A stretch of 64,000 nucleotides of DNA from Parcubacteria bacterium C7867-004 (GCA_001189075.1 LFCN01000006.1:237219-301218); one strand, 5' to 3'; positions 64 to 31,641 are shown, counted from the stretch's first letter. Notes: generated from the sequence alone by a model not told the origin. A program made the numbers and translations.

Positions 64-528
64 TTGGCGACGCTTGATCTGATCTTGATAGCTCTGCTCG
101 TTTGGATGTTGCAGCACTTCAGGTTCGTGTACAGGACTCCGCTATTATTCATCATCGCCATACTGATAGTATTCGGCACGGCAAGCGGACTTCTGTTCGA
201 TCGCGAGACCGGGTTCCATGACGACCGATTCGAGGAAGCTGAGGCAGGAGAGCTTCCGATACCGATACAGGAGCTGTATGAGAATGTGCTCCCGACGGCA
301 CCTGAAGACCAGGGCATATATCGCGGGTATGTTACCGGCATCGTTTCCGGAGCGTTCCTGATGACGTATGACGATAATGATCACGACGAAGACGATGGCA
401 CCTGGATCGTCATGGGCCCTTCAGGTTTCGATACGTCCGCACTTCGGATAGGAGACAAGGTATATGTGGCGGGAGACCGTGACGGAAAGACGATCGAGGC
501 ATACGGCGTACGTACCTTGGCTCGGTAG
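64..528 (+). CDS. hypothetical membrane protein with an acidic C-terminal domain
   Basis: 154-aa ORF. N-terminus has two hydrophobic helices and a D/E-rich tail. No recognisable motifs. Confidence 0.4.
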   Translation: MATLDLILIALLVWMLQHFRFVYRTPLLFIIAILIVFGTASGLLFDRETGFHDDRFEEAEAGELPIPIQELYENVLPTAPEDQGIYRGYVTGIVSGAFLMTYDDNDHDEDDGTWIVMGPSGFDTSALRIGDKVYVAGDRDGKTIEAYGVRTLAR

Positions 529-568: not shown

Positions 569-763
569 ATGCCCACAGAAACACTCGCATACTCGCTCTA
601 CGTCTGCCTCGAATGCGGATGGATATATGACGAGACGCTCGGGATGCCCGAGCGCGGTATCCCGCCCGGTACCCGGTGGGAGAGCCTTCCTGACGACTTC
701 CAATGCGGTGATTGCGATATCCAGAAGCGCGACACTCATATGTGGCAGAAACTCCCCGCATGA
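569..763 (+). CDS. rubredoxin
   Basis: 64 aa. CLECGWIYDE...GIPPGT...LPDDFQCGDCD carries a CxxCG knuckle and a second CxxC knuckle, a variant of the canonical CPxCG. Conserved aromatic core is present. Confidence 0.8.
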   Translation: MPTETLAYSLYVCLECGWIYDETLGMPERGIPPGTRWESLPDDFQCGDCDIQKRDTHMWQKLPA

Positions 764-1131
764 AAAAGGACACCAAGACATTCCTCTATACCGTACTCGG
801 CATCCCTCTCGTATTGAGTTGGGTGTGGGGGCTTAACGCTGCGAATGAGGCGAGTACGGTGACGTACCAGCGGGAGCATGTTGCCGAAGCTGTGCCTGAG
901 ATAGTGCTGCCGGTTGAACCTGCTCAGGAGGTGGTAGCTGTAGCGACGGCAACTCCCGTGGTGCCTGTCCCTAAGCCCGTGCGCGCAAAGCCTGTCCCGC
1001 AACCTGTGGTAGTTCCCGTGCCGGTAGCTCCACCTGCGGTTGTGACGGTCGTTACGCCTCCGCCTGCCGATCCTGCCCCTAAACCTAAGCCGGTGGCGGT
1101 GAAGAAGGCACGGCGCACCCGCGCCAGCTAA
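760..1131 (+). CDS. membrane-anchored Pro/Val-rich protein (TonB-like spacer, no C-terminal domain)
   Basis: ATG at 760 overlaps the rubredoxin stop (ATGA). One N-terminal TM helix, then a PVVPVPKPV... low-complexity region and a basic tail. Confidence 0.5.
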   Translation: MKKDTKTFLYTVLGIPLVLSWVWGLNAANEASTVTYQREHVAEAVPEIVLPVEPAQEVVAVATATPVVPVPKPVRAKPVPQPVVVPVPVAPPAVVTVVTPPPADPAPKPKPVAVKKARRTRAS

Positions 1132-1135
1132 TGCC

Positions 1136-2062
1136 ATGAAGGAATACGACTACGAGAAGAAGATCATGGGGTCAGAGGCGAGCTTGAGCATCATCGCGCC
1201 TACGCCAGCGATTGCTAACGCTGCGGTAGTTGAGCTCTTTGAGATCGCCGAGAATGAAGAAGCCCGCTTTTCGCGATTTCGCGAAGAGAGCGAGCTTTCA
1301 CGACTCAATCGTGAACGCTCGTGCCAGGTTTCCAAAGAGTTCATGGATGCGTTCTTGCTCGGGAAAGAGCTGTACCGCACAACGCACGGTACATTCAACC
1401 CGCTTGTCGACATTTCCCGTTTCGGATACGACGCGGACATAGCCGTTGTAAAGGGCACGAACCGTATTGGGAAAGAGATTGCGTCGTACGACACCGATAT
1501 GGAATCGGTGCTCGTCGATCAGGAAACTATGACCATTTCGCTTGCGGAGGGTCAGAATCTTGATTTCGGCGGATATATGAAAGGGCATACCGCGGAGAAG
1601 ATGGCGAAGGCTGCCAAGGGCTGTCAGGGAGTACTGGTAAACCTCGGCGGAGACATCTACGCCCGCGGACTCGATGCAGAAGGGAAGCCTTTTATCTTCG
1701 TAATCGAAGACCCGACTGATGCCGGTATCGACCTCTCATTCTTTGCGACTAATGCGGGGATCGCAACCAGTGGATCCTACAACCGCCACTGGAACTATCT
1801 CGGTACCCCGTTCTTTCATATCCTCGACGCATCAGGGACCAAGAACCCGGCGACAGAAATCCTGTCGGCCACTGTTATTGCGCGATCGGGCGCAGAAGCC
1901 GACGCATACGCGACTGCAGCTCTTATTCTCGGGATCAAGCCCGCTGAGAGATTCCTTGAGGAGAACGGGTGCGAGTACTGCCTCATCGGAAAGGACGGCA
2001 GTTTGACCTTTTCCGGAGCATTTCCACTTGTTCAGAAAGCTGAATCCTACCTCTATGCCTAA
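1136..2062 (+). CDS. apbE: FAD:protein FMN transferase (ApbE family)
   Basis: 308 aa. ApbE-like N-terminus (MGS...RFSRF...SELSRLN) and GGDIYARG / SGSY motifs. Confidence 0.8.
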   Translation: MKEYDYEKKIMGSEASLSIIAPTPAIANAAVVELFEIAENEEARFSRFREESELSRLNRERSCQVSKEFMDAFLLGKELYRTTHGTFNPLVDISRFGYDADIAVVKGTNRIGKEIASYDTDMESVLVDQETMTISLAEGQNLDFGGYMKGHTAEKMAKAAKGCQGVLVNLGGDIYARGLDAEGKPFIFVIEDPTDAGIDLSFFATNAGIATSGSYNRHWNYLGTPFFHILDASGTKNPATEILSATVIARSGAEADAYATAALILGIKPAERFLEENGCEYCLIGKDGSLTFSGAFPLVQKAESYLYA

Positions 2063-2681
2063 CAAAACATTCTTCACGTTCATAGCGTCACTTCAAGAGA
2101 CGCTCCTCATAATAGGTATCGGAATATCGCTCCTGCTGCCGATGATTCTTGCCTACGCTCCGGCGTATCTGCCGGAGTGGTCGTACACTGCACTATTCGG
2201 GCTGTCGCTATTCACGGTATTCCTCGTGATGATCATCCGCCCGCTTGCTGATTTGTTTCCTAGCGTCACCTGGATACGGCCGCTCGTGATCTTGCGCAAG
2301 GGATTCGGCGTACTGTCGGCATCGATCATCGTGGGGATTATGCTCTCGAAGTTCATGGTCGATGGATTTGTCTACGCGCTCGACTTCTTCAGTCCTGAGC
2401 ACTGGTCGCTTGCTGGCGGCGCCGTGCTCGCGCCGATCGGAGATCTCTCCGCGCTGGTGCTCTTGGTCACGTCTAACAAATACTCGAAACGCGTACTCGG
2501 CAAGAACTGGAAGCGAATACAGAAGCTCGCGTACGTGTACTTCTATGCAGGCGCCTTGTATGAATTCCTGTTGCTCGATCAAGTCCTCGCTCTGGTAGCG
2601 ATGATCCTCGTAACGGCTCTAGTGGGCGCGGCGTATATAAAGAACAACCTGAAGCCCGTGCGCACACCTCAAACCATATGA
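2055..2681 (+). CDS. ferric-reductase-domain (MsrQ/YedZ-like) polytopic membrane protein lacking the haem-ligating histidines
   Basis: ~6 TM helices. RKGFGVLSA and KLAYVYFYAGALYEF sit at positions resembling MsrQ RRxLG / LHNFVY...H, but the whole protein has only one His. ATG at 2055 overlaps the apbE stop. Confidence 0.6.
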   Translation: MPNKTFFTFIASLQETLLIIGIGISLLLPMILAYAPAYLPEWSYTALFGLSLFTVFLVMIIRPLADLFPSVTWIRPLVILRKGFGVLSASIIVGIMLSKFMVDGFVYALDFFSPEHWSLAGGAVLAPIGDLSALVLLVTSNKYSKRVLGKNWKRIQKLAYVYFYAGALYEFLLLDQVLALVAMILVTALVGAAYIKNNLKPVRTPQTI

Positions 2682-3379
2682 CTATAAAGCGCATGACCGC
2701 GAATATAGGAACCGTACGCGACCTCTCGCCGACCGCGCGTGAAGTCACGCTCCGTCTTCCTGAGCCGCTCGGTTTCTCGCCCGGCGCGTTCGTGAACGTA
2801 TTCATGGATGCGGATGGTTCTCGCCTACGCCGTGCCTACTCGATATCCTCCGATGAGAATGCTCAGGATACGGTCACGCTTTCCATTCGGAAAGGAAGCC
2901 CGGGCGGTATGAGCGAGCGCTTCTGGGACGAGCAGATTGAACGCGTGCCGCTCGAGATCATGGGACCGCTCGGAATTAATACTGCCGATAAGATCACTGG
3001 TAGCAGGATATTCCTATTCGGATTCGGTATCGGCGTGTCAGTGATAAAAGGACTCCTGCCGCACCTGCTTCGAAGGGAAAATGTGACAGAGATAACCGTC
3101 ATGATTGGAAGCAGAAACGAGAAAGAATCCTTATATAAGGGATTCTTCGAGGAATTAGCGGGGCGCGACCCGCGCCTCAGAGTGAAGATAGTACTCTCGC
3201 AGCCGCTCGATGCCGCGTATCCATTCAAGGGATATCTGCAGTACCATGTTGATGACCTCGATTTCAGTGACGCGTCGGTTTATATCTGCGGAACGAAGAT
3301 CGCTGCCGAGTCCCTGAGGGAAGTGATAGAAAAGAAAGGGTCCGCGGTCCGAGAGTTCTTACTAGAAGCGTTCGATTAA
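2678..3379 (+). CDS. FNR-like FAD/NAD(P)-binding oxidoreductase subunit
   Basis: RRAYSISS (RxYS FAD motif) and GFGIGVSV (NAD-binding glycine motif). Start overlaps the upstream gene by 4 nt (ATGA). Confidence 0.75.
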   Translation: MTIKRMTANIGTVRDLSPTAREVTLRLPEPLGFSPGAFVNVFMDADGSRLRRAYSISSDENAQDTVTLSIRKGSPGGMSERFWDEQIERVPLEIMGPLGINTADKITGSRIFLFGFGIGVSVIKGLLPHLLRRENVTEITVMIGSRNEKESLYKGFFEELAGRDPRLRVKIVLSQPLDAAYPFKGYLQYHVDDLDFSDASVYICGTKIAAESLREVIEKKGSAVREFLLEAFD

Positions 3380-3389
3380 GCATATACTC

Positions 3390-3785
3390 ATGACTATGAA
3401 TACCAACACGAAATTCCTCCTTGTCGGACTGCTCGGCATCATTATCGGAATGGGCGGAGCAACGCTTGCGCTGCATGAGCGCGGCAATGATAGCGATGAT
3501 GGCCACCGTATGGCAGACGGATCCCGGATGCGAGGCTCAATGAGTATGCAGGGAGAGATGGACGGCATGATGCAGGCTCTCGACGGGAAGACCGGAGACG
3601 CATTCGATCAGGCCTTCCTGAAGGAAATGATCGTCCATCACCAGGGTGCGGTAGCTATGGCAGAGGCAGCACTAAAGAATGCCAAGCACCAGGAGATCAA
3701 GGACCTCGCCCAGGGAATAATCTCCGCGCAGAATTCTGAGATTCAGAAGATGGGTGAGTGGCAGAAAAGTTGGTACGGTAAGTGA
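3390..3785 (+). CDS. DUF305 family protein (secreted)
   Basis: N-terminal TM/signal region and the DUF305 signature FLKEMIVHHQGAVAMAE. Confidence 0.7.
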   Translation: MTMNTNTKFLLVGLLGIIIGMGGATLALHERGNDSDDGHRMADGSRMRGSMSMQGEMDGMMQALDGKTGDAFDQAFLKEMIVHHQGAVAMAEAALKNAKHQEIKDLAQGIISAQNSEIQKMGEWQKSWYGK

Positions 3786-4736: not shown

Positions 4737-5305
4737 TGAACATGCTTTCCATAGAGGACACCAACCGCATGTCTTGGAATGAGGTCGATGAATGCAAAGA
4801 TCGGCTATTCAAGCAGATAGAAGCGGAATTCACTGACCCGGAATCCCTCATAATCGCGCCTCTGCTCCGGACAGGAGGAATTGTCGGCGGCATGCTGTCC
4901 ATAAAGCTTCGGGCGGTTCAGATGCTCCCGCTCCAGTTCAAGTATTTATATAACCCGACAAAGATCAGTCAGTTGCTCTCGATACCCGATTTTCTCGCTG
5001 AGGTGCCTAGCCCCATGAACGTTGTTCTGTGCGAAGGGAATACAAGCTCAGGCTCAACCGCGATAAAGGCATCCGCCGCGATACGTGAGAAATATCCGCA
5101 TGCAAAAGTTTACTTAGCTACGCTGACGAAAGTGTTCGGCGGCCCTGAGGAGCTCGAAGGCATAGAAAAGATATTCTATGGTCGCCAGACAGATGAAGGA
5201 TTTAAAGCTACTGCTGAAGAAAAGGAAAGCCTTGATCTAAGAGAAGGGGTTACCGTTTTCCCATGGGAAAATGCTGACGACGAACTCTCCGATCTAAATG
5301 CCTAG
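4736..5305 (+). CDS. phosphoribosyltransferase-like fold protein (degenerate PRPP motif)
   Basis: NVVLCEGNTSSGSTA resembles the type-I PRTase PRPP loop, but the acidic pair is replaced by EG. Start overlaps the previous stop (TAATG). Confidence 0.4.
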   Translation: MNMLSIEDTNRMSWNEVDECKDRLFKQIEAEFTDPESLIIAPLLRTGGIVGGMLSIKLRAVQMLPLQFKYLYNPTKISQLLSIPDFLAEVPSPMNVVLCEGNTSSGSTAIKASAAIREKYPHAKVYLATLTKVFGGPEELEGIEKIFYGRQTDEGFKATAEEKESLDLREGVTVFPWENADDELSDLNA

Positions 5306-5331
5306 AACAGACTGCTGGTCCTTGAGCCTCT

Positions 5332-5640
5332 CTATTTCTTAGATCGCTTGCTGAGCACCCCTCGCACCGAAGGACTCACCGCTTTATCCTTGCGGTGGAT
5401 ACAACCGATCCAGCAACAGGGACGGCGCACACCTTCCTTGAGCTTGCTGATAAGACACTCTCGATGCTCCTTTCTCGTCTCCTCCTTCTTTACGGAGATA
5501 ACCCAGCAGATCCATTCATTGCGCGCGAGCGGCGTAAGACTCTCCCAGGCAGCGCGTGCGGCCTTGCTTGAGGAAAGAGCCTTTTGGATATCTGAAGGTA
5601 GTGCGTGGGCGGTACCCGCGGAGATTGTTATCGTAGCCAT
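5332..5640 (-). CDS. YdeI/OmpD-associated family protein
   Basis: ~100 aa. C-terminal ...ARNEWICWVISVKKEETRKEHRECLISKL is typical of the YdeI (DUF1905-associated) family. Start taken at MATITIS. Confidence 0.55.
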   Translation of the reverse strand: MATITISAGTAHALPSDIQKALSSSKAARAAWESLTPLARNEWICWVISVKKEETRKEHRECLISKLKEGVRRPCCWIGCIHRKDKAVSPSVRGVLSKRSKK

Positions 5641-5691
5641 ACGTACATAGTACTGCAATTTTATTACCGGGAGATGTGCTACATTCTTCGC

Positions 5692-6237
5692 ATGGTTAGC
5701 ATCATGTACTTCGTCCATGGGACCACCGTCGACAACGAGAATGAGATCTCGTCCGGGTGGTCGGACGCAGAGCTCTCGGAGCTCGGTATCCGGCAGTCGA
5801 TCGAGCTCGGAGAGAAAGTCGATGGGGCATCATTCGACGTCGTCTTCTGCTCGGATCTTTCGCGGGCTCGCAAGTCCGCTGAACTCGCCTGGGGAGAGAC
5901 GGTACCCATCATTCCGGACGCTCGATTGCGGGAATGTAATTACGGAACGCTGAATGGCGCAGCTTCCGCGATCGTGGAGCCGCTGCAGGAGAGAGACATG
6001 CATCATACGCCGTTCCCGGAAGGGGAGAGCTATAACGATGTGAAGGACCGCGTCGCTGATTTCCTTGAATTCCTGAAAGCAGACTATGACGGGAAGCGCG
6101 TTGCTATAGTGGGTCATAAGGCTCCCCAGCTTGCGCTCGACGTATTGCTCAAAGGAATAACCTGGGACGAGGCGCTGGCTCGCGACTGGCGCAAGACCAA
6201 GTCCTGGCAGCCCGGGTGGGAATATACGATTACCTAA
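5692..6237 (+). CDS. histidine phosphatase family protein (phosphoglycerate mutase-like)
   Basis: YFVHGTT(V)...SDLSRARKSAE...VAIVGHKAP matches the RHG-type branch-1 phosphatase layout. The Arg of RHG is replaced by Val. Confidence 0.6.
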   Translation: MVSIMYFVHGTTVDNENEISSGWSDAELSELGIRQSIELGEKVDGASFDVVFCSDLSRARKSAELAWGETVPIIPDARLRECNYGTLNGAASAIVEPLQERDMHHTPFPEGESYNDVKDRVADFLEFLKADYDGKRVAIVGHKAPQLALDVLLKGITWDEALARDWRKTKSWQPGWEYTIT

Positions 6238-8772: not shown

Positions 8773-9246
8773 ATGCCCGATTTCAAGAAGACCAATCGAT
8801 TCAGTAAGCCAGGAGGCTTCAAGCGCCCGACATTCGGGTCAGGACCGCGTCGCCCCGCTGGACGCGATTTCGGGAATACCGAGACATTCAAGGCAACCTG
8901 CAGCAAGTGCAACAATTCCTGCGATGTGCCGTTCCGTCCGAATGGGAAGAAGCCGGTATTCTGCAAGGACTGCTTCGTCCGCGATGACGCCCGCCCTCAG
9001 ACCGGGGGATATGAGAAGCGTAGCTACAACGACGAGCGCCCTTCCTACAATCCTAAGCCGGCTGTAACCGAGGACCCTCGTATCGGTGCTATGCAGAAGG
9101 AGCTCGCGGTAGTCCATGCGAAACTCGATACCCTTATCGAGCGCCTCGAAGGCGCGGCGTTCTCTTCGATCATTGAGAAGGCATCCGAGCGCGCGGAAAA
9201 GCCGGTAAAGACTAAAGCCGCAGCAAAGAAAGCAGCGAAAAAATAA
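8773..9246 (+). CDS. zinc-ribbon protein with Lys/Ala-rich C-terminal tail
   Basis: CSKCNNSC...FCKDCF gives a CxxC...CxxC zinc ribbon. C-terminal KTKAAAKKAAKK basic tail. Preceded by TTGTATGATATAAT. Confidence 0.55.
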   Translation: MPDFKKTNRFSKPGGFKRPTFGSGPRRPAGRDFGNTETFKATCSKCNNSCDVPFRPNGKKPVFCKDCFVRDDARPQTGGYEKRSYNDERPSYNPKPAVTEDPRIGAMQKELAVVHAKLDTLIERLEGAAFSSIIEKASERAEKPVKTKAAAKKAAKK

Positions 9247-9355
9247 TTCCTGCCGCAAGACACAGTGCAAGAGCGCGCCCTTCTGGGCGCGTTCTTGTTT
9301 GCTATGCTTGAAGGCATTAACGCTCAGTTCACTATCCTCATTCCATACTTCGCAC

Positions 9356-9748
9356 ATGCTTACCTACAAATCAACATTCAGCGGGTTCTCGGTAGACGAC
9401 ATCATCAAAGCGAAAGAGTTCTATGGCTCAATGCTCGGTATAGATACGAAAGAGACGGAAGAAGGGCTTGAGCTCCATGTTTCGGGAGATGCGCCCGTAT
9501 TTCTCTACCCGAAGCCCAATCATGCTCCGGCGAGTTATACGGTATTGAACTTCTTAGTAACCGACATCGATGCAGCGGCGGATGAACTTATCGCGGCAGG
9601 TGTCAGTCTTGAAACGTACGATATGGGAAAGATGGGAACTGCGGACGAGAAGGGAATCTATCGCGGCAAAGAGGGAGAGATGGGGCCTACGGCAATAGCG
9701 TGGCTCCTCGATCCGGCAGGGAACATCCTTTCGATCATTCAGGAATAA
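9356..9748 (+). CDS. VOC/glyoxalase family protein
   Basis: ~130 aa with βαβββ-like spacing (GIDTKE...ELHVSGD...YPKPNHAP...). Family called from overall pattern. Confidence 0.6.
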   Translation: MLTYKSTFSGFSVDDIIKAKEFYGSMLGIDTKETEEGLELHVSGDAPVFLYPKPNHAPASYTVLNFLVTDIDAAADELIAAGVSLETYDMGKMGTADEKGIYRGKEGEMGPTAIAWLLDPAGNILSIIQE

Positions 9749-12620: not shown

Positions 12621-13733
12621 ATGACTGTACGGAATGCCGTAACACTCGCCATCGTCATCGCACTCATTGCGGGCGCGATTTGGTACCTGGAGTCGCTGAA
12701 GCCGAAGACCGTGAGCGTCGATAGGAACGAGAACAGTGTCGAGCACGCGACCACTACCGAGACCGCCGACTACGCGGTCCGGGTAAAGAACTTTCCTCTC
12801 GCGCAGGAACTCGTCGCTCCCGACGGATACCTCAACACCGGCGACAAGCCGATAACCATCGCATCACTTGTCGGGAAGAAGGTCATTCTCGTCGACTTCT
12901 GGACGTACAGCTGTATCAACTGCCAGCGCACGCAGCCATATCTGAACGCCTGGTACGAGAAGTACGCGGACGAAGGTCTCGAGATAATCGGAGTGCATAC
13001 GCCGGAGTTCGACTTCGAGAAGGTGAAGGAGAACGTCGCGCAAGCGGTGGCGAGAGATGGGATAAAGTACCCGGTCGTGCAGGATAATGCGTACGCTACC
13101 TGGAACGCGTATCAGAACCGTTTCTGGCCTCATAAGTACTTGATCGATATCAACGGCCTCATCGTCTATGACCACATCGGCGAAGGCGCGTACGACGAGA
13201 CCGAGCGTGAGATTCAGAAAGCCCTTGCCGAACGCAAGCAGGTCCTGGGGGAAGCAGGCTCAATATCGACGGGTATCGTGGCGCCGAGCGAAACCCCGCG
13301 AGCGGGAAGCGCCGAGACGTACTTCGGGTACGATCGTAACGAATTCCTTGGAAACGGCCGCGCGGGGTCGGCGGGCATGCAGACGCTTACTCGTCCAGAA
13401 AAGGTATTACCGAACGTGCTGTACATGACCGGTGCCTGGAACTTCACGAAAGAGTACGCGGAGAGCGCAAGCGCTTCTTCGATTATCTATTCGTATGACG
13501 CGAAGCAGGTGTTCTTCGTCGCTGAAAGCACAGAAGGTACTACCATAACAGTCTTGCGCGACGGAGTGCCCGTAGCAGCTGAGAAAGGAGCTGATGTAGA
13601 CGCCTCAGGAAGGGTGCTTGTGAAGGAGGCACGCCTCTACAAGCTCATCAATGAGAAAGAGCGCGGCACGCACACTATCGAGATCAAGGTAGAGGGGGCA
13701 GGTCTCAAGGCCTTCACCTTCACGTTCGGCTAA
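12621..13733 (+). CDS. TlpA/ResA-like thiol-disulfide oxidoreductase with extra C-terminal domain
   Basis: TM anchor. WTYSCINCQ is a CxxC thioredoxin fold (ILVDFWTYSCINC...GVHTPEF). ~170-aa β-rich C-terminal extension. Confidence 0.8.
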   Translation: MTVRNAVTLAIVIALIAGAIWYLESLKPKTVSVDRNENSVEHATTTETADYAVRVKNFPLAQELVAPDGYLNTGDKPITIASLVGKKVILVDFWTYSCINCQRTQPYLNAWYEKYADEGLEIIGVHTPEFDFEKVKENVAQAVARDGIKYPVVQDNAYATWNAYQNRFWPHKYLIDINGLIVYDHIGEGAYDETEREIQKALAERKQVLGEAGSISTGIVAPSETPRAGSAETYFGYDRNEFLGNGRAGSAGMQTLTRPEKVLPNVLYMTGAWNFTKEYAESASASSIIYSYDAKQVFFVAESTEGTTITVLRDGVPVAAEKGADVDASGRVLVKEARLYKLINEKERGTHTIEIKVEGAGLKAFTFTFG

Positions 13734-28823: not shown

Positions 28824-28880
28824 GGGCGGTTGCAGCCATAAGCGGCCTAGTTCTTAGGCCATTTACGGCTGCAACCGACC
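28824..28880 (+). promoter_or_regulatory. nested inverted-repeat element in 5' leader
   Basis: GGGCGGTTGCAGCC...GGCTGCAACCGaCCC outer stem encloses the inner palindrome GGCCTAGttcCTAGGCC. Confidence 0.45.
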
Positions 28881-28979
28881 CAACCCATCATGATGGTGGA
28901 CGGACAACAGCTCGTGTTGAGGCGATGCCTCGATGCAGATCACCTTTCCACCATCAGCAAATCTCAAGGAGACACCCTC

Positions 28980-30491
28980 ATGCGCATGCCGTTCAAGCGT
29001 CAGACCGCAACGACTGCCACGACCGACGAGAACGGGCTTGAGACTCTCAATCCCGCGCTCCTTCTGGAGGGCGAGATTGAGACCGAGATCGGGCGGGCGC
29101 ATGCCCTCGCGGTCACGTTCAAGCCCGGAGAAGAACTCCAACCCTTCCTCAGACAGATCATCGGGCGCGTCGCTCGCATGCACGTGGACTACAACAAGCG
29201 TGCGACGAGCACCCTGCAGGCTATCGCCGGCAGGTTCGTGGTCCTCAAGACCCAACTCGACCAGCCGGTCGAAACCGAGGCAGCGAAGTCTCGCGCGGAA
29301 CTCACCAAAAGGATCGAGAACCACGTGAGGGATCGCGTTCGTCGGAAACTGAAGATCGCCAGCTCCCTCAAGGGACAACGTGAAGACGAGCGCAAGCTCG
29401 CCATCGGCATCTTCGGTGATCCGGAACTCTCGGCTCAAAAGCCGAGCCGGCTGAAAGACGTGGCCGCCTTCCTCATCAGCCTCTTCGTTGGAGCGGGTCT
29501 CGACCTGTCCCTCAACCTGGAGTTGATGAGCTTCGGCTCCACCTTCGCCGTCGCGATCTCCATGTCGCTGCTGATCTCGCTGATCGGTGCGACCTTGGCG
29601 CATTTCGCCTCCCGGTCCATCAGGACCTGGAAGTGCCATCGCCAAGCCCTCGCCGCCTTCAGCCGGGAATTCCCGGATGGGAAGGACTTCAAGACTGGGA
29701 AAGAGGTCTTCGTGTTGCCGCTGCCGCCCGGCTTCGCGCCGATGGCAAGCGTCACGCACGGCGGCCTCATCCTGCTCGCTGCCGCTCTTGTCTGGGTTCG
29801 CCTGGACATCATGCGGGACCAGCCCGGCGCGAATGCCATCGGCCTCTTCGCGACCTTCCTGGTGATCGGCACCTGGTTCGTCCAGTACCTCTTTGAAGCG
29901 TTCATGTCGGGCATCGAACACGCCCGGCTCCGTGAGCTTCATGAGATGCAGGAGAACCTGGGCGGTCTCGAAGAGGAACACCTTTCCCTCAGCGAGATCG
30001 ACGGCACCGACGAGTTCATGGTCAAGATCGGCCAAGAGGTCTCGGACTACGAAGAAGCCGCCGTGACCCGCGCGAAAGCGCTGGCAGAGACGGCGGAAAA
30101 GCTCACTCGCGAGCGTAACGAGTTCGATCGTTTGTTGGCGGAGTTCCAGGCATCTCATGCCTGGTTCACCGCCGCTGCGACGGATGTGGCCGAGGTTTTC
30201 CTGGCCGACGTCGCGGGCTCCAAGACTGCTCCGAGTGCGCTTAAGCCCAACGATCTCAGTACGATGATCGTGGGCGTGCTCCCGGAACCCGTCAAGGCTG
30301 TGGCTGATTTCGACAAGATCTTCGCCTTCGATGTCCCGCAAGACGGGGCGTCGGAGGAACCGGTCGACGTCGAGACTATCGTCCTCAGCTTCGCGGACGC
30401 TTTCGAGGCTCGTGAACGTTCGCGACAAGAAAAAGAAGCTGAGCGGGCTCGAGTCGAAGAGGCGCAAGCCTTCCTCGCCAAGACCAACTGA
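28980..30491 (+). CDS. polytopic membrane protein with N- and C-terminal cytoplasmic coiled-coil domains (unknown family)
   Basis: ~503 aa. ~165-aa soluble N-terminus, 3-4 central TM helices, ~190-aa acidic coiled-coil C-terminus. Very GC-rich codons. Confidence 0.55.
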   Translation: MRMPFKRQTATTATTDENGLETLNPALLLEGEIETEIGRAHALAVTFKPGEELQPFLRQIIGRVARMHVDYNKRATSTLQAIAGRFVVLKTQLDQPVETEAAKSRAELTKRIENHVRDRVRRKLKIASSLKGQREDERKLAIGIFGDPELSAQKPSRLKDVAAFLISLFVGAGLDLSLNLELMSFGSTFAVAISMSLLISLIGATLAHFASRSIRTWKCHRQALAAFSREFPDGKDFKTGKEVFVLPLPPGFAPMASVTHGGLILLAAALVWVRLDIMRDQPGANAIGLFATFLVIGTWFVQYLFEAFMSGIEHARLRELHEMQENLGGLEEEHLSLSEIDGTDEFMVKIGQEVSDYEEAAVTRAKALAETAEKLTRERNEFDRLLAEFQASHAWFTAAATDVAEVFLADVAGSKTAPSALKPNDLSTMIVGVLPEPVKAVADFDKIFAFDVPQDGASEEPVDVETIVLSFADAFEARERSRQEKEAERARVEEAQAFLAKTN

Positions 30492-30520
30492 GCTACAACA
30501 CCTTCAGGAAAGTTACTGAC

Positions 30521-31606
30521 ATGAAACGCCAAGCTGTCACGCCCACGCCGAAGGCCGGGCAAAAGTCCGCATCGCGCGGATTCAGTATCTGGTGGATCGT
30601 CGGCGCGGTGGGAGCGTTCATCGCCCTCATCGCCCTGATCTCCGTCTTCGTCTTCGGGCGATCGGAGTTCATGCCGCAGACGGACACCTACACCTTCGCG
30701 CGCGACCTGTCCATCGACAACGGCCAGAAGATCGATCCCGCCACGTTCAAGGACACGACGGGAAAGATCACGCTCGCCGAGGTCTTCACGGACAACAAGG
30801 CGCTGAGCTACTACGGCGCCGACGACAAGGGTCAAGACGGAGTGGGCCTCACGGTCCGCTTCGTCACGACGGTGGGCGGCAGGCCGGTCCCTGGTGGGGA
30901 CAAGGCCTTCAGCCTTCCGGGCTGGAAGAGCCGAAACGAGAACGGGGTCAACAACCCCGTTCGTCGCGCGTTCGCGAAAGAGAAGCAGGGCGAGTTCCAC
31001 TCGCTCGTCGGCTCCTTCGCCGCGTCCGTTTCTCTCGATCGTCTCGCAGTCGTGGTGGTCGACACCACGAGCGGGGTGAGCGAGGACATGGCCCGCCGGG
31101 TCAACACCACGGTCAACGGGATCTGCAAGGATCCCGATACTGTGGTCCGGCTGCACCTCATCTCGAGCGAGTCCTACCAGGGCGGCGCTCGCGAATGGCG
31201 GTGTCGGATCCTGTCTTCGGGCGAGATCGACGCGGTGATCGCAAGCCAAGGGGCCAACGCCTCCGGCGTGCTCAAGAGCCTCCGGGCTATCACCGAGTCG
31301 GTCTCGAACGAGGTCGCGGAGAACCCGCGGTCGCTGGTCACGGTCCATGTCTTCACCGACGGGATCGAGAACTACGACGGCTGGGACTTCTACAAGGCCC
31401 AGCGCCCGATGATCGAAGACCAGTCCAACTGGTCCAAGGTCGATGAGCGGTTCGGTCTCGCCAGCTTCAAGCTGCAAGGGGTGAGGTTCGTCCTCCACCC
31501 CACGCCGCAACCGCCGGAGCATCAGGCGCTGATGGGGCATGCACTCGCGTACCTGGCCGACAGGCTGGAGAACGCGGGCGCGAAGGTCCAAAAGCTCGAC
31601 TTCTAG
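30521..31606 (+). CDS. membrane-anchored protein with vWA-like domain
   Basis: N-terminal TM. VVVVDTTSGVS (MIDAS-like) and VHVFTDGIEN (vWA TDG motif). 30 nt downstream of the previous gene. Confidence 0.5.
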   Translation: MKRQAVTPTPKAGQKSASRGFSIWWIVGAVGAFIALIALISVFVFGRSEFMPQTDTYTFARDLSIDNGQKIDPATFKDTTGKITLAEVFTDNKALSYYGADDKGQDGVGLTVRFVTTVGGRPVPGGDKAFSLPGWKSRNENGVNNPVRRAFAKEKQGEFHSLVGSFAASVSLDRLAVVVVDTTSGVSEDMARRVNTTVNGICKDPDTVVRLHLISSESYQGGAREWRCRILSSGEIDAVIASQGANASGVLKSLRAITESVSNEVAENPRSLVTVHVFTDGIENYDGWDFYKAQRPMIEDQSNWSKVDERFGLASFKLQGVRFVLHPTPQPPEHQALMGHALAYLADRLENAGAKVQKLDF

Positions 31607-31641
31607 TCGGGCCAACGACGGTACTACCCTCTATTGTACTT

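Follow-up and report, generated by a model that had tools for sequence, protein, structure and literature searches.

A compact five-gene redox cluster is present at positions 569-3379 on the plus strand of the window, a 64,000-nt stretch of DNA from the ultra-small Parcubacteria bacterium C7867-004. The cluster encodes, in order, a rubredoxin, a proline-rich anchored protein (here called the carrier), an ApbE-family flavin transferase, a six-transmembrane (TM) protein of the ferric reductase domain (FRD) superfamily and an FNR-like oxidoreductase for flavin adenine dinucleotide (FAD) and NAD(P)H. With a confidence just short of even, this cluster might be regarded as a derivative, specific to the Candidate Phyla Radiation (CPR)/Patescibacteria lineage, of the 'MsrQ-like' flavinylation-associated electron-transfer system, in which the haem site has been lost and the flavin pocket kept. 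A conserved clade present in many Patescibacteria species drops a histidine pair that has been treated as universal in the superfamily (PMC3591440) and retains the flavin pocket together with the redox partners, which raises the questions of what replaces the haem and whether flavins alone carry electrons across the membrane.

The membrane protein belongs to a family that standard profiles reach only at its edges. Against Pfam it gave no match at E <= 0.1, the gathering score of PF01794 not being reached, and its match to the NCBIfam MsrQ model was sub-threshold (20.9 bits versus a cut-off of 130 bits). A search of 1.84 billion representatives with the family profile returned only 337 proteins at E <= 0.001, and therefore the family appears to be small and separate. 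Distant members of it pass the Pfam Ferric_reduct model (P0245, with 32.2 bits versus a gathering score of 28 bits, and P0152), and the residues of the MsrQ pocket align, so that the FRD/MsrQ-like membership claimed by the original prediction was borne out. The fold is confidently predicted to have six TM helices with the cofactor bundle formed by helices 2 to 5. In a BLASTP comparison of the membrane protein with Escherichia coli MsrQ, TSNKYSKRVLGKNWKRIQ was aligned with TSTQAMQRKLGKHWQQLH, and the motif TS...LGK.W...(H/Q) aligns directly between the two proteins. An hhalign comparison of the family with the single MsrQ sequence was weak (probability 16%), and among PDB sequences a profile search gave nothing relevant.

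Previous studies showed that MsrQ and the STEAP proteins hold one haem, ligated in MsrQ by H91 and H164, together with a cytoplasmic flavin (Carpentier et al. 2025, PMC12525009). The MsrQ flavin is held by R77, R78, L131, S135, W147 and H151, two of these positions being Lys and Gln in STEAP (PMC12525009). The residue register was taken from a 38-sequence MAFFT alignment, which E. coli MsrQ (MG1655) joined via intermediate relatives. In this register, R77 and R78, both essential parts of the flavin mononucleotide (FMN) pocket of MsrQ, correspond to R81, which is invariant, and to K82, which is nearly invariant and is Lys in STEAP too; L131, S135 and W147 correspond to L136, S140 and W152, and H151 corresponds to the invariant Q156, which is Gln in STEAP. 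All six pocket positions are invariant or nearly so in the family. The YedZ/STEAP branch of the superfamily has been defined by an Arg in TM3 and a Gln or His in TM5 that replaces the cytoplasm-proximal His (Zhang et al. 2013, PMC3591440), and R81 and Q156 give the window protein exactly this signature. Among membrane-protein sequences down to 47% identity, 25 columns are invariant, and most of the invariant residues lie on the cytoplasmic face; on the outer side Y107, W117 and D130 are invariant or nearly so. Judging from these residues, the membrane protein has quite probably retained its flavin site.

The flavin in this pocket would be non-covalent. The proposal that the membrane subunit itself may be covalently flavinylated was not upheld, as its sequence has no flavinylation-type motif of the form [ST]GA[ST]. 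Three other possible sites were considered and rejected: the invariant triplet S88-A89-S90 is located within TM3 and lacks an Asp; T139/S140 is also conserved in E. coli MsrQ, whose FMN is non-covalent (PMC12525009); and S144 is Ala or Cys in some members.

Homology to the FRD superfamily combined with the loss of the haem ligands is very probable. The surface-proximal His pair, located in TM3 and TM5, has been treated as conserved across the whole superfamily (PMC3591440), and the window protein lacks it: the MsrQ ligands H91 and H164 correspond to I95 and Y169 in the MAFFT alignment. The protein contains a single His, as had been predicted; it is H116, in the loop between helices 3 and 4, and no His is present in a TM helix. 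One His in 208 residues is unremarkable by chance, and what matters is which positions lack it. Among 120 close homologues, the H116 column is not conserved (H in 40, Y in 50), no column is His throughout, and nine or more members are entirely His-free. Position 95 is F, I or L in the Parcubacteria clade and His in haem-type relatives, and position 169 is Tyr in all 120 close homologues and Phe in a few genome loci. Distant family members have His at both positions, and in an intermediate group position 95 holds A/N/S/F and position 169 Y/V/I/L, together with an R/H127-E130 pair; in the Parcubacteria clade D130 is invariant. The substitution by Tyr or Ala expected in the original prediction thus holds, as Tyr, for H164 only, H91 being replaced by Ile or Phe and H151 by Gln as in STEAP. 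Its statement that bis-His sites cannot exist stands as regards the loss of ligands; the plural does not, since MsrQ and STEAP have one bis-His haem (PMC12525009, PMC3591440).

The region of the former haem also appears to have been remodelled. By a crude estimate made from sequence alone, the outer halves of TM2 to TM5 are a net ~358 cubic angstroms smaller than those of haem-type relatives, and they are more polar and acidic (D130, S132, K99 and H/P127). The idea that bulky residues fill the former haem pocket therefore received no support, the outer halves being smaller and not larger; as they are not bulkier and are more polar, a cavity may persist that would suit a polar ligand. Some Parcubacteria carry a haem-dependent oxidase and haem-biosynthesis genes (PMC12577380), which weakens the explanation that CPR bacteria cannot make haem. 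As a separate observation, most sister Parcubacteria species (within loci L005-L084, for example L015-L081) have His52 in TM2 and His127 in TM4, both in the outer leaflet, and the window subclade has L52 (2208-2210) and P127 (2433-2435). In addition, ten loci (L058-L061, L067, L071, L076 and L082-L084), from metagenome-assembled genomes (MAGs) labelled Moraniibacteriota, Minisyncoccota or 'Bdellovibrionales', encode a His-less member (F52, H127, D130, Y169) with no partner genes within 6 kb, and the open reading frames (ORFs) of these members are longer at the N-terminus.

A covalent flavin, on the evidence of sequence motifs, would probably be carried by the tethered protein and not by the membrane subunit. 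For the carrier, AlphaFold2 (AF2) gives one helix, residues 2-41, and no secondary structure in the rest (pTM 0.23). The N-terminal helix is conserved with the consensus MKKDxxNVxxTF, the middle is a highly variable low-complexity region rich in P/V/T or in A/Q, and the last seven residues are conserved as S-R-x-[ST]-x-A-S-COOH, mostly SRxSRAS or SRRTRAS. Counting back from the terminal Ser as position 0, position -2 is mostly R, with K, Q, H, T, N, A or S in some species, and position -6 is S, V, T or A. A census of 6526 ORFs of at least 50 residues from 85 loci, made with the C-terminal pattern R.[ST].AS, found 67 that end in this way, nearly all of them the carrier, in 66 of the 85 loci; a counterpart of the carrier adjoins rubredoxin or ApbE in ~66 loci. 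Each of 48 trimmed carriers has Ser or Thr at -3, Ala at -1 and Ser at 0, although the pattern used for their selection itself fixes these positions, as it does the Arg at -5. Only 8 close relatives came out of a homology search with the carrier, each annotated as hypothetical and free of Pfam domains. The sequence complexity of this family is too low for homology searching.

The minimal motif recognised by ApbE has been reported to be seven residues long, D-x-x-[S/T]-G-A-[S/T], with the last residue modified and with the best performance at a protein terminus (PMC12052999). For a characterised ApbE, a D-to-A change had a minor effect and a G-to-A change left ~50% of flavinylation (PMC12052999). 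Moreover, flavinylated unstructured C-terminal extensions of FMN_red proteins have been documented (PMC11334425). The carrier tail shares with this motif the length of seven residues and the -3/-1/0 skeleton, and it may be a substrate of ApbE, a proposal to which we give slightly better than even chances. The original prediction had pointed to the neighbouring genes as the place to look for the canonical motif: no real gene of the window carries it, with or without an FMN-binding domain, and what the search brought out is the look-alike tail of the proline-rich protein. The canonical motifs present elsewhere in the window all fall in ORFs that are out of frame or antisense, for instance 8839-9357 on the minus strand over a real plus-strand zinc-finger gene, and were rejected.

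The ApbE protein of the cluster matches PF02424 over its full length (profile positions 1-264 of 266), scores below the cut-off of the NCBIfam equivalog (86.9 versus 498 bits) and has a conserved N-terminus, MKEY..K.MGS. The carrier is predicted, from charge bias, to have its N-terminus inside and its C-terminus outside in 42 of 60 cases, including the window clade. The window carrier has an N-terminal signal-anchor and no lipobox, and its analogues in distant loci are lipoproteins.

The partners of the membrane protein are widely conserved with it. Relatives of the membrane protein are encoded in 156 genome stretches, and gene neighbours were counted on 80 loci, nearly all labelled Patescibacteria/CPR. 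The ApbE gene lies directly upstream of the membrane gene in 68 of these and the FNR-like gene directly downstream in 62; rubredoxin is present in 57, and the tail protein in 61, plus variants that the pattern missed. An OmpR-type two-component pair sits between rubredoxin and ApbE in 37 loci, and the window subclade has the collinear five-gene form without this pair. ApbE and the tail protein co-occur (Fisher p = 1.7e-4 without correction for phylogeny; table 47/4/1/5); of the four seeming exceptions, two just have Lys at position -5. Loci with ApbE and the membrane gene that are devoid of FNR and rubredoxin keep the tail protein, loci devoid of ApbE are devoid of the tail protein as well, and ApbE is the sole enzyme common to all tail-bearing loci. 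As a side observation, in L046 (4834-7186, Campbellbacteria MAG RB_MAG_00022) the ApbE, membrane and FNR-like genes are each split into two or three ORF fragments; either the cluster is decaying in this genome or the locus is poorly assembled.

Gene fusions in relatives join the same partners: P0230 is TM::rubredoxin::FNR, P0130 Fer4::FNR::TM, P0245 TM::Fer4::FNR, P0136 FNR::TM and P0168 FMN_red::TM. P0230 and P0270 carry rubredoxin as the middle part of the fusion, with the membrane domain on one side and the FNR module on the other. These fusions argue for a route by which electrons from NAD(P)H would reach the membrane domain by way of the FNR flavin and an iron-sulphur carrier, and rubredoxin is likely a one-electron carrier between the FNR-like reductase and the membrane protein. 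Two of the FMN_red::TM fusions, P0168 and P0172, end in the tail motif. In L085 a His-less fusion of this type (5001-6179) ends in SRHSQAS at a supposedly cytoplasmic C-terminus; two genes upstream of it, the slot before ApbE is taken by a 90-residue lipoprotein with the lipobox LVAC that ends in PSRYSEAS. A second FMN_red::TM fusion, in L086 (172-1353), ends in ARRSQAS, and its C-terminus is likewise expected in the cytoplasm.

In more distant loci the same slot is occupied by FMN_bind-like lipoproteins. In L087 it holds a lipoprotein with the canonical motif DGITGAS, FMN_bind-like by sequence inspection, beside a TM::rubredoxin::FNR fusion and ApbE. All genes of this locus, a Logan SRR31021092 contig, read through TGA where Gly is expected (for example MG-T and DGIT-G-AS), and therefore a genetic code of the Gracilibacteria/SR1 type appears to be in use. 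L090 has a lipoprotein with GYVSGSS beside ApbE and a His-less Fer4::FNR::TM fusion; this lipoprotein is FMN_bind-like by inspection, with no Pfam hit on record. Since the slot is shared with FMN_bind-like lipoproteins, the gene of the tail protein sits where MsrQ-like systems (PMC8238504) encode their flavinylated subunit.

In the proposed mechanism, NAD(P)H would reduce the FAD of the FNR-like subunit, and rubredoxin would hand single electrons to a non-covalent flavin in the inner pocket (R81, K82, L136, S140, W152 and Q156). The inner flavin would then reduce an FMN that ApbE had linked to the carrier's C-terminal Ser, and this FMN would in turn pass electrons to an acceptor at the cell surface, with the carrier tail serving as a natural seven-residue flavin tag. 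For the gap left by the haem, the preferred guess is that the tail FMN would dock where the haem used to sit, in a pocket now remodelled and more polar. It is likely that the system is flavin-based, and to this extent the flavin-only transmembrane conduit of the original prediction is sustained by the intact pocket and the conserved ApbE; its other part, the crossing of the membrane, was not borne out, and no outer-site cofactor was identified. A working haem-free path across the membrane is possible, with the balance leaning against it. The full all-flavin wire, in which the tail would be flavinylated in the cytoplasm before export, its FMN would sit in the former haem pocket, take up electrons from a STEAP-type inner flavin and swing out to surface acceptors, is on the whole unlikely.

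Several observations weigh against the proposed mechanism. All ApbE proteins of the linked loci are leaderless, with mostly 8-16 residues possible before x-MG-[ST] and no hydrophobic stretch (62 ORFs). Most characterised ApbE proteins have an N-terminal lipoprotein signal, and cytoplasmic ApbE proteins are known in Klebsiella and trypanosomatids. With a leaderless ApbE and an exported-looking carrier, enzyme and tail would therefore be separated by the membrane unless the flavin is attached first and the carrier exported afterwards. Attachment ahead of Sec export would reconcile the two predictions, and we know of no precedent for it. In L085, moreover, a single ApbE would need to act on two tails, one cytoplasmic and one on a lipoprotein. 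The tail itself departs from the canonical motif in having Ser in place of Asp at -6, mostly Arg in place of Gly at -2 and an invariant Arg at -5, and no covariation was found between its positions -2, -4 and -7 and positions 52, 99, 127, 170 and 175 of the membrane protein. Unless an outer cofactor is present, the inner flavin lies too far from the surface for electrons to tunnel in the ordinary way. In the sister clades, His52 and His127 might provide a different site for haem or a metal along the other diagonal of the helices, and in L090 a His-less FRD protein is paired with a folded FMN_bind-like lipoprotein, whose flavin is not easily plugged into a membrane pocket.

The outer site might instead hold another redox cofactor, such as a haem ligated by Tyr169, a haem at His52/His127 in the sister clades, a quinone scavenged from a host or a metal ion, in which case the protein would be an ordinary two-cofactor FRD conduit with unusual ligation. 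Tyr169 is invariant in the close homologues, His52 and His127 lie in the outer leaflet of most sister species, and the cavity may persist in outer helix halves that are not bulkier than those of haem-type relatives. As well, MsrQ also binds ubiquinone or menaquinone (PMC12525009), and haem-dependent oxidases are encoded by some Parcubacteria, as noted above. However, the window clade has neither His52 nor His127 and still keeps the whole cluster, position 169 is Phe in several species and position 95 is F, I or L, so that no axial ligand pair is available, and the more polar and acidic outer half (invariant D130, S132, K99) fits a haem or a quinone poorly. To our knowledge there is also no precedent for a five-coordinate Tyr-ligated haem as a membrane relay, and this explanation is regarded as improbable. 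A similarly low probability is assigned to the reading that the FRD-like protein is a membrane dock with a cytoplasm-facing flavin and that the module is a membrane-bound cytoplasmic NAD(P)H oxidoreductase with no transmembrane conduit, acting for example in the detoxification of oxygen or peroxide via rubredoxin, with the leaderless ApbE fixing flavin on the cytoplasmic side. It would account for an ApbE that is leaderless in every locus, for the tail motif on the cytoplasmic C-terminus of FMN_red::TM fusions, for the cytoplasmic position of most invariant membrane-protein residues and for an outer cofactor that is not evident, and a superoxide dismutase gene adjoins the cluster in L040. A simple dock, however, would have no need of the conserved Y107, W117 and D130 on the outer side; the predicted outward C-terminus of the carrier, which extends to the window clade, and the lipoboxes of the analogues in L085, L087 and L090 speak for export, and haem-type relatives that share these partners belong to a kind of system described as transmembrane (PMC8238504).

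The tail might, alternatively, have no part in flavinylation and be a docking, sorting, protease or kinase signal, in which case ApbE would cleave FAD as a pyrophosphatase, or provide FMN, to serve the non-covalent pocket. The missing Asp at -6 and Gly at -2, the invariant Arg at -5 and the predicted separation of ApbE and tail by the membrane would all agree with this. R-x-[ST] resembles the sites of basophilic kinases, and some ApbE/Ftp homologues hydrolyse FAD, both of which count in its favour. It leaves unexplained that the motif co-occurs with ApbE, the only enzyme found in every tail-bearing locus, and that relatives fill the slot with FMN_bind-like lipoproteins bearing DGITGAS or GYVSGSS; furthermore, length and the -3/-1/0 skeleton match a minimal tag that is tolerant at -6 and -2 (PMC12052999). 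We consider this explanation distinctly improbable. That the His-less protein is a decaying pseudogene or an artefact of sequencing or assembly, to which only the fragmented cluster of L046 would lend support, is almost certainly wrong and was rejected on family-wide conservation: there are 545 homologues and 156 genome stretches with a relative, the loss is clade-wide with His at both ligand positions only in distant members, and 25 invariant columns, conserved coupling and gene order and a confident fold prediction accompany it. Sequencing error, named in the original prediction as a possible refutation, is thereby disposed of. The derivative of an MsrQ-like system with its haem site lost remains the preferred reading.

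Compared with known systems, the window proteins share with E. coli MsrQ (YedZ)/Fre the six-TM FRD fold, all FMN-pocket positions and a separate 233-residue NAD(P)H donor of the FNR family. They differ in having I95 and Y169 for His91 and His164 and Gln for His151, and in the addition of ApbE, rubredoxin and the tail-bearing carrier; no gene for the MsrP molybdoenzyme partner is present in the window cluster or in the Pfam-annotated neighbourhoods of relatives. STEAP1-4 likewise have an Arg in TM3, Lys and Gln at the flavin pocket, and an inner flavin with one outer site (PMC12525009, PMC3591440). In contrast to the window protein, STEAPs keep the bis-His outer haem, are eukaryotic and involve no ApbE. 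STEAP2-4 also have a fused N-terminal reductase domain of the F420H2:NADP+ type, unlike the separate FNR-like subunit and rubredoxin here. The NOX enzymes (SpNOX, NOX5 and NOX2) have four His, two haems and a fused dehydrogenase, whereas the window system has no haem ligands, a separate reductase and an additional rubredoxin.

A further resemblance is to the 'MsrQ-like' flavinylation clusters (Meheust et al. 2021 eLife PMC8238504; Huang et al. 2024 mSystems PMC11334425), in which ApbE, an FRD-family protein and a PF00175 module are also clustered and a partner carries an ApbE-type motif, as the FMN_bind-like lipoproteins (by inspection) of L087 and L090 do. The described systems, chosen for their signal peptides and mostly actinobacterial, are conserved-His cytochromes that pass PF01794 and use an FMN_bind domain that is folded, whereas the window system has no such His, no Pfam match for its membrane protein and a leaderless ApbE, with a disordered tether and terminal heptapeptide in place of the FMN_bind domain. 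The FMN_red extensions of Lactococcus and the engineered seven-residue 'flavin-tag' also present a short unstructured terminal peptide to ApbE, as the candidate substrate here would, and in those systems the flavin can then occupy a pre-existing non-covalent flavin site. The window tag differs from them in being located on a separate membrane-tethered protein, in trans, and in its sequence, S-R-x-[ST]-x-A-S versus D-x-x-[ST]-G-A-[ST].

Flavinylation-associated MsrQ-like proteins have been described as cytochromes with conserved His (PMC11334425). Published surveys required signal peptides and Pfam hits, and CPR bacteria were strikingly under-represented for flavinylation in them, being almost free of such systems (PMC8238504, PMC11334425); the window system would have escaped these surveys. 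Literature searches found no description of this His-less FRD/ApbE/tail system. If the proposal is true, a flavinylated terminal heptapeptide on a disordered tether would extend the substrates of ApbE beyond folded domains, and leaderless ApbE proteins with lipoprotein substrates would challenge the view that flavinylation occurs only after export. The all-flavin wire, if true, would represent a new class of ApbE substrate with a new timing of flavinylation, and the first member of the FRD superfamily that works without haem. In organisms regarded as devoid of electron-transport chains, the system could also reveal a redox outlet, be it for the regeneration of NAD+, the reduction of metals or the handling of oxygen; any of these three roles is possible.

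Table 1. Genes and sites of the redox cluster and its downstream neighbour, in window coordinates (aa, amino acid residues).
Feature	Position	Strand	Basis
Rubredoxin, 64 aa	569..763	+	PF00301 9e-18, CxxC...CxxC
Candidate tethered carrier, Pro-rich, N-anchored, 123 aa	760..1131	+	no Pfam or NCBIfam family
Carrier C-terminal heptapeptide A-R-R-T-R-A-S-COOH, candidate ApbE site on terminal Ser	1108..1128	+	
ApbE-family FAD:protein FMN transferase, 308 aa	1136..2062	+	PF02424 1.2e-44
Six-TM FRD-fold membrane protein, 208 aa, YedZ/STEAP branch	2055..2681	+	
Arg81-Lys82 (equivalents of MsrQ Arg77/Arg78)	2295..2300	+	MAFFT alignment
Ile95, at the TM3 haem-ligand position (MsrQ His91)	2337..2339	+	
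Gln156, at the MsrQ His151 position, flavin pocket	2520..2522	+	BLASTP and MAFFT
Tyr169, at the TM5 haem-ligand position (MsrQ His164)	2559..2561	+	
FNR-like FAD/NAD(P)H oxidoreductase, 233 aa	2678..3379	+	PF00970 7.5e-09, PF00175 2.2e-07
DUF305/CopM-like protein	3390..3785	+	PF03713 1e-21, NCBIfam CopM 4e-18

The coordinates and the Pfam matches agree with the gene order first proposed for the cluster (Table 1), and the start/stop overlaps agree with the two couplings proposed along with it. The ATG of the carrier at 760 overlaps the rubredoxin stop as ATGA, the FNR-like gene is ATGA-coupled to the membrane-protein gene, its product being a separate, unfused subunit, and the ATG of the membrane protein overlaps the end of the ApbE gene by 8 nt. 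The FNR-like protein is Fre-like in size and architecture and gives a full-length match to PRK08051 (NAD(P)H-flavin reductase) that is far under the cut-off (52 versus 230 bits). The membrane protein is 100% identical to the deposited hypothetical protein AB199_01525 of Parcubacteria bacterium C7867-004. No promoter-like or terminator-like site was found inside the 569-3379 block, nor was a terminator-like site found between the FNR-like gene and the DUF305/CopM-like gene, which begins 10 nt further downstream and is possibly co-transcribed with the cluster.

The DUF305/CopM-like gene, of a copper-metallochaperone family, recurs in close relatives only, directly downstream in L005 (7313-7723) and elsewhere within L007, L010 and L071. 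In addition, the ApbE gene has next to it a gene for a CsoR-family metal repressor in L087 and one for superoxide dismutase in L040. These neighbours hint at a possible link to copper or oxidative stress; such hints are weak, and the genes are not conserved.

Other parts of the window hold further genes of note. Just upstream of rubredoxin, an ORF of 154 residues (64-528, plus strand) has two N-terminal hydrophobic segments, an acidic C-terminal half and no family match. At 28863-30491 and 30155-31615, long ORFs on opposite strands overlap almost fully (533 residues on the plus strand versus 534 on the minus strand, and 361 on the plus strand versus 486 on the minus strand), and the first of these pairs has no Pfam match on either strand. 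As well, another redox-defence gene is present at 12621-13733 on the plus strand, which encodes a 370-residue AhpC/TSA-Redoxin protein with a thioredoxin-like C-terminal domain (Thioredoxin_10).

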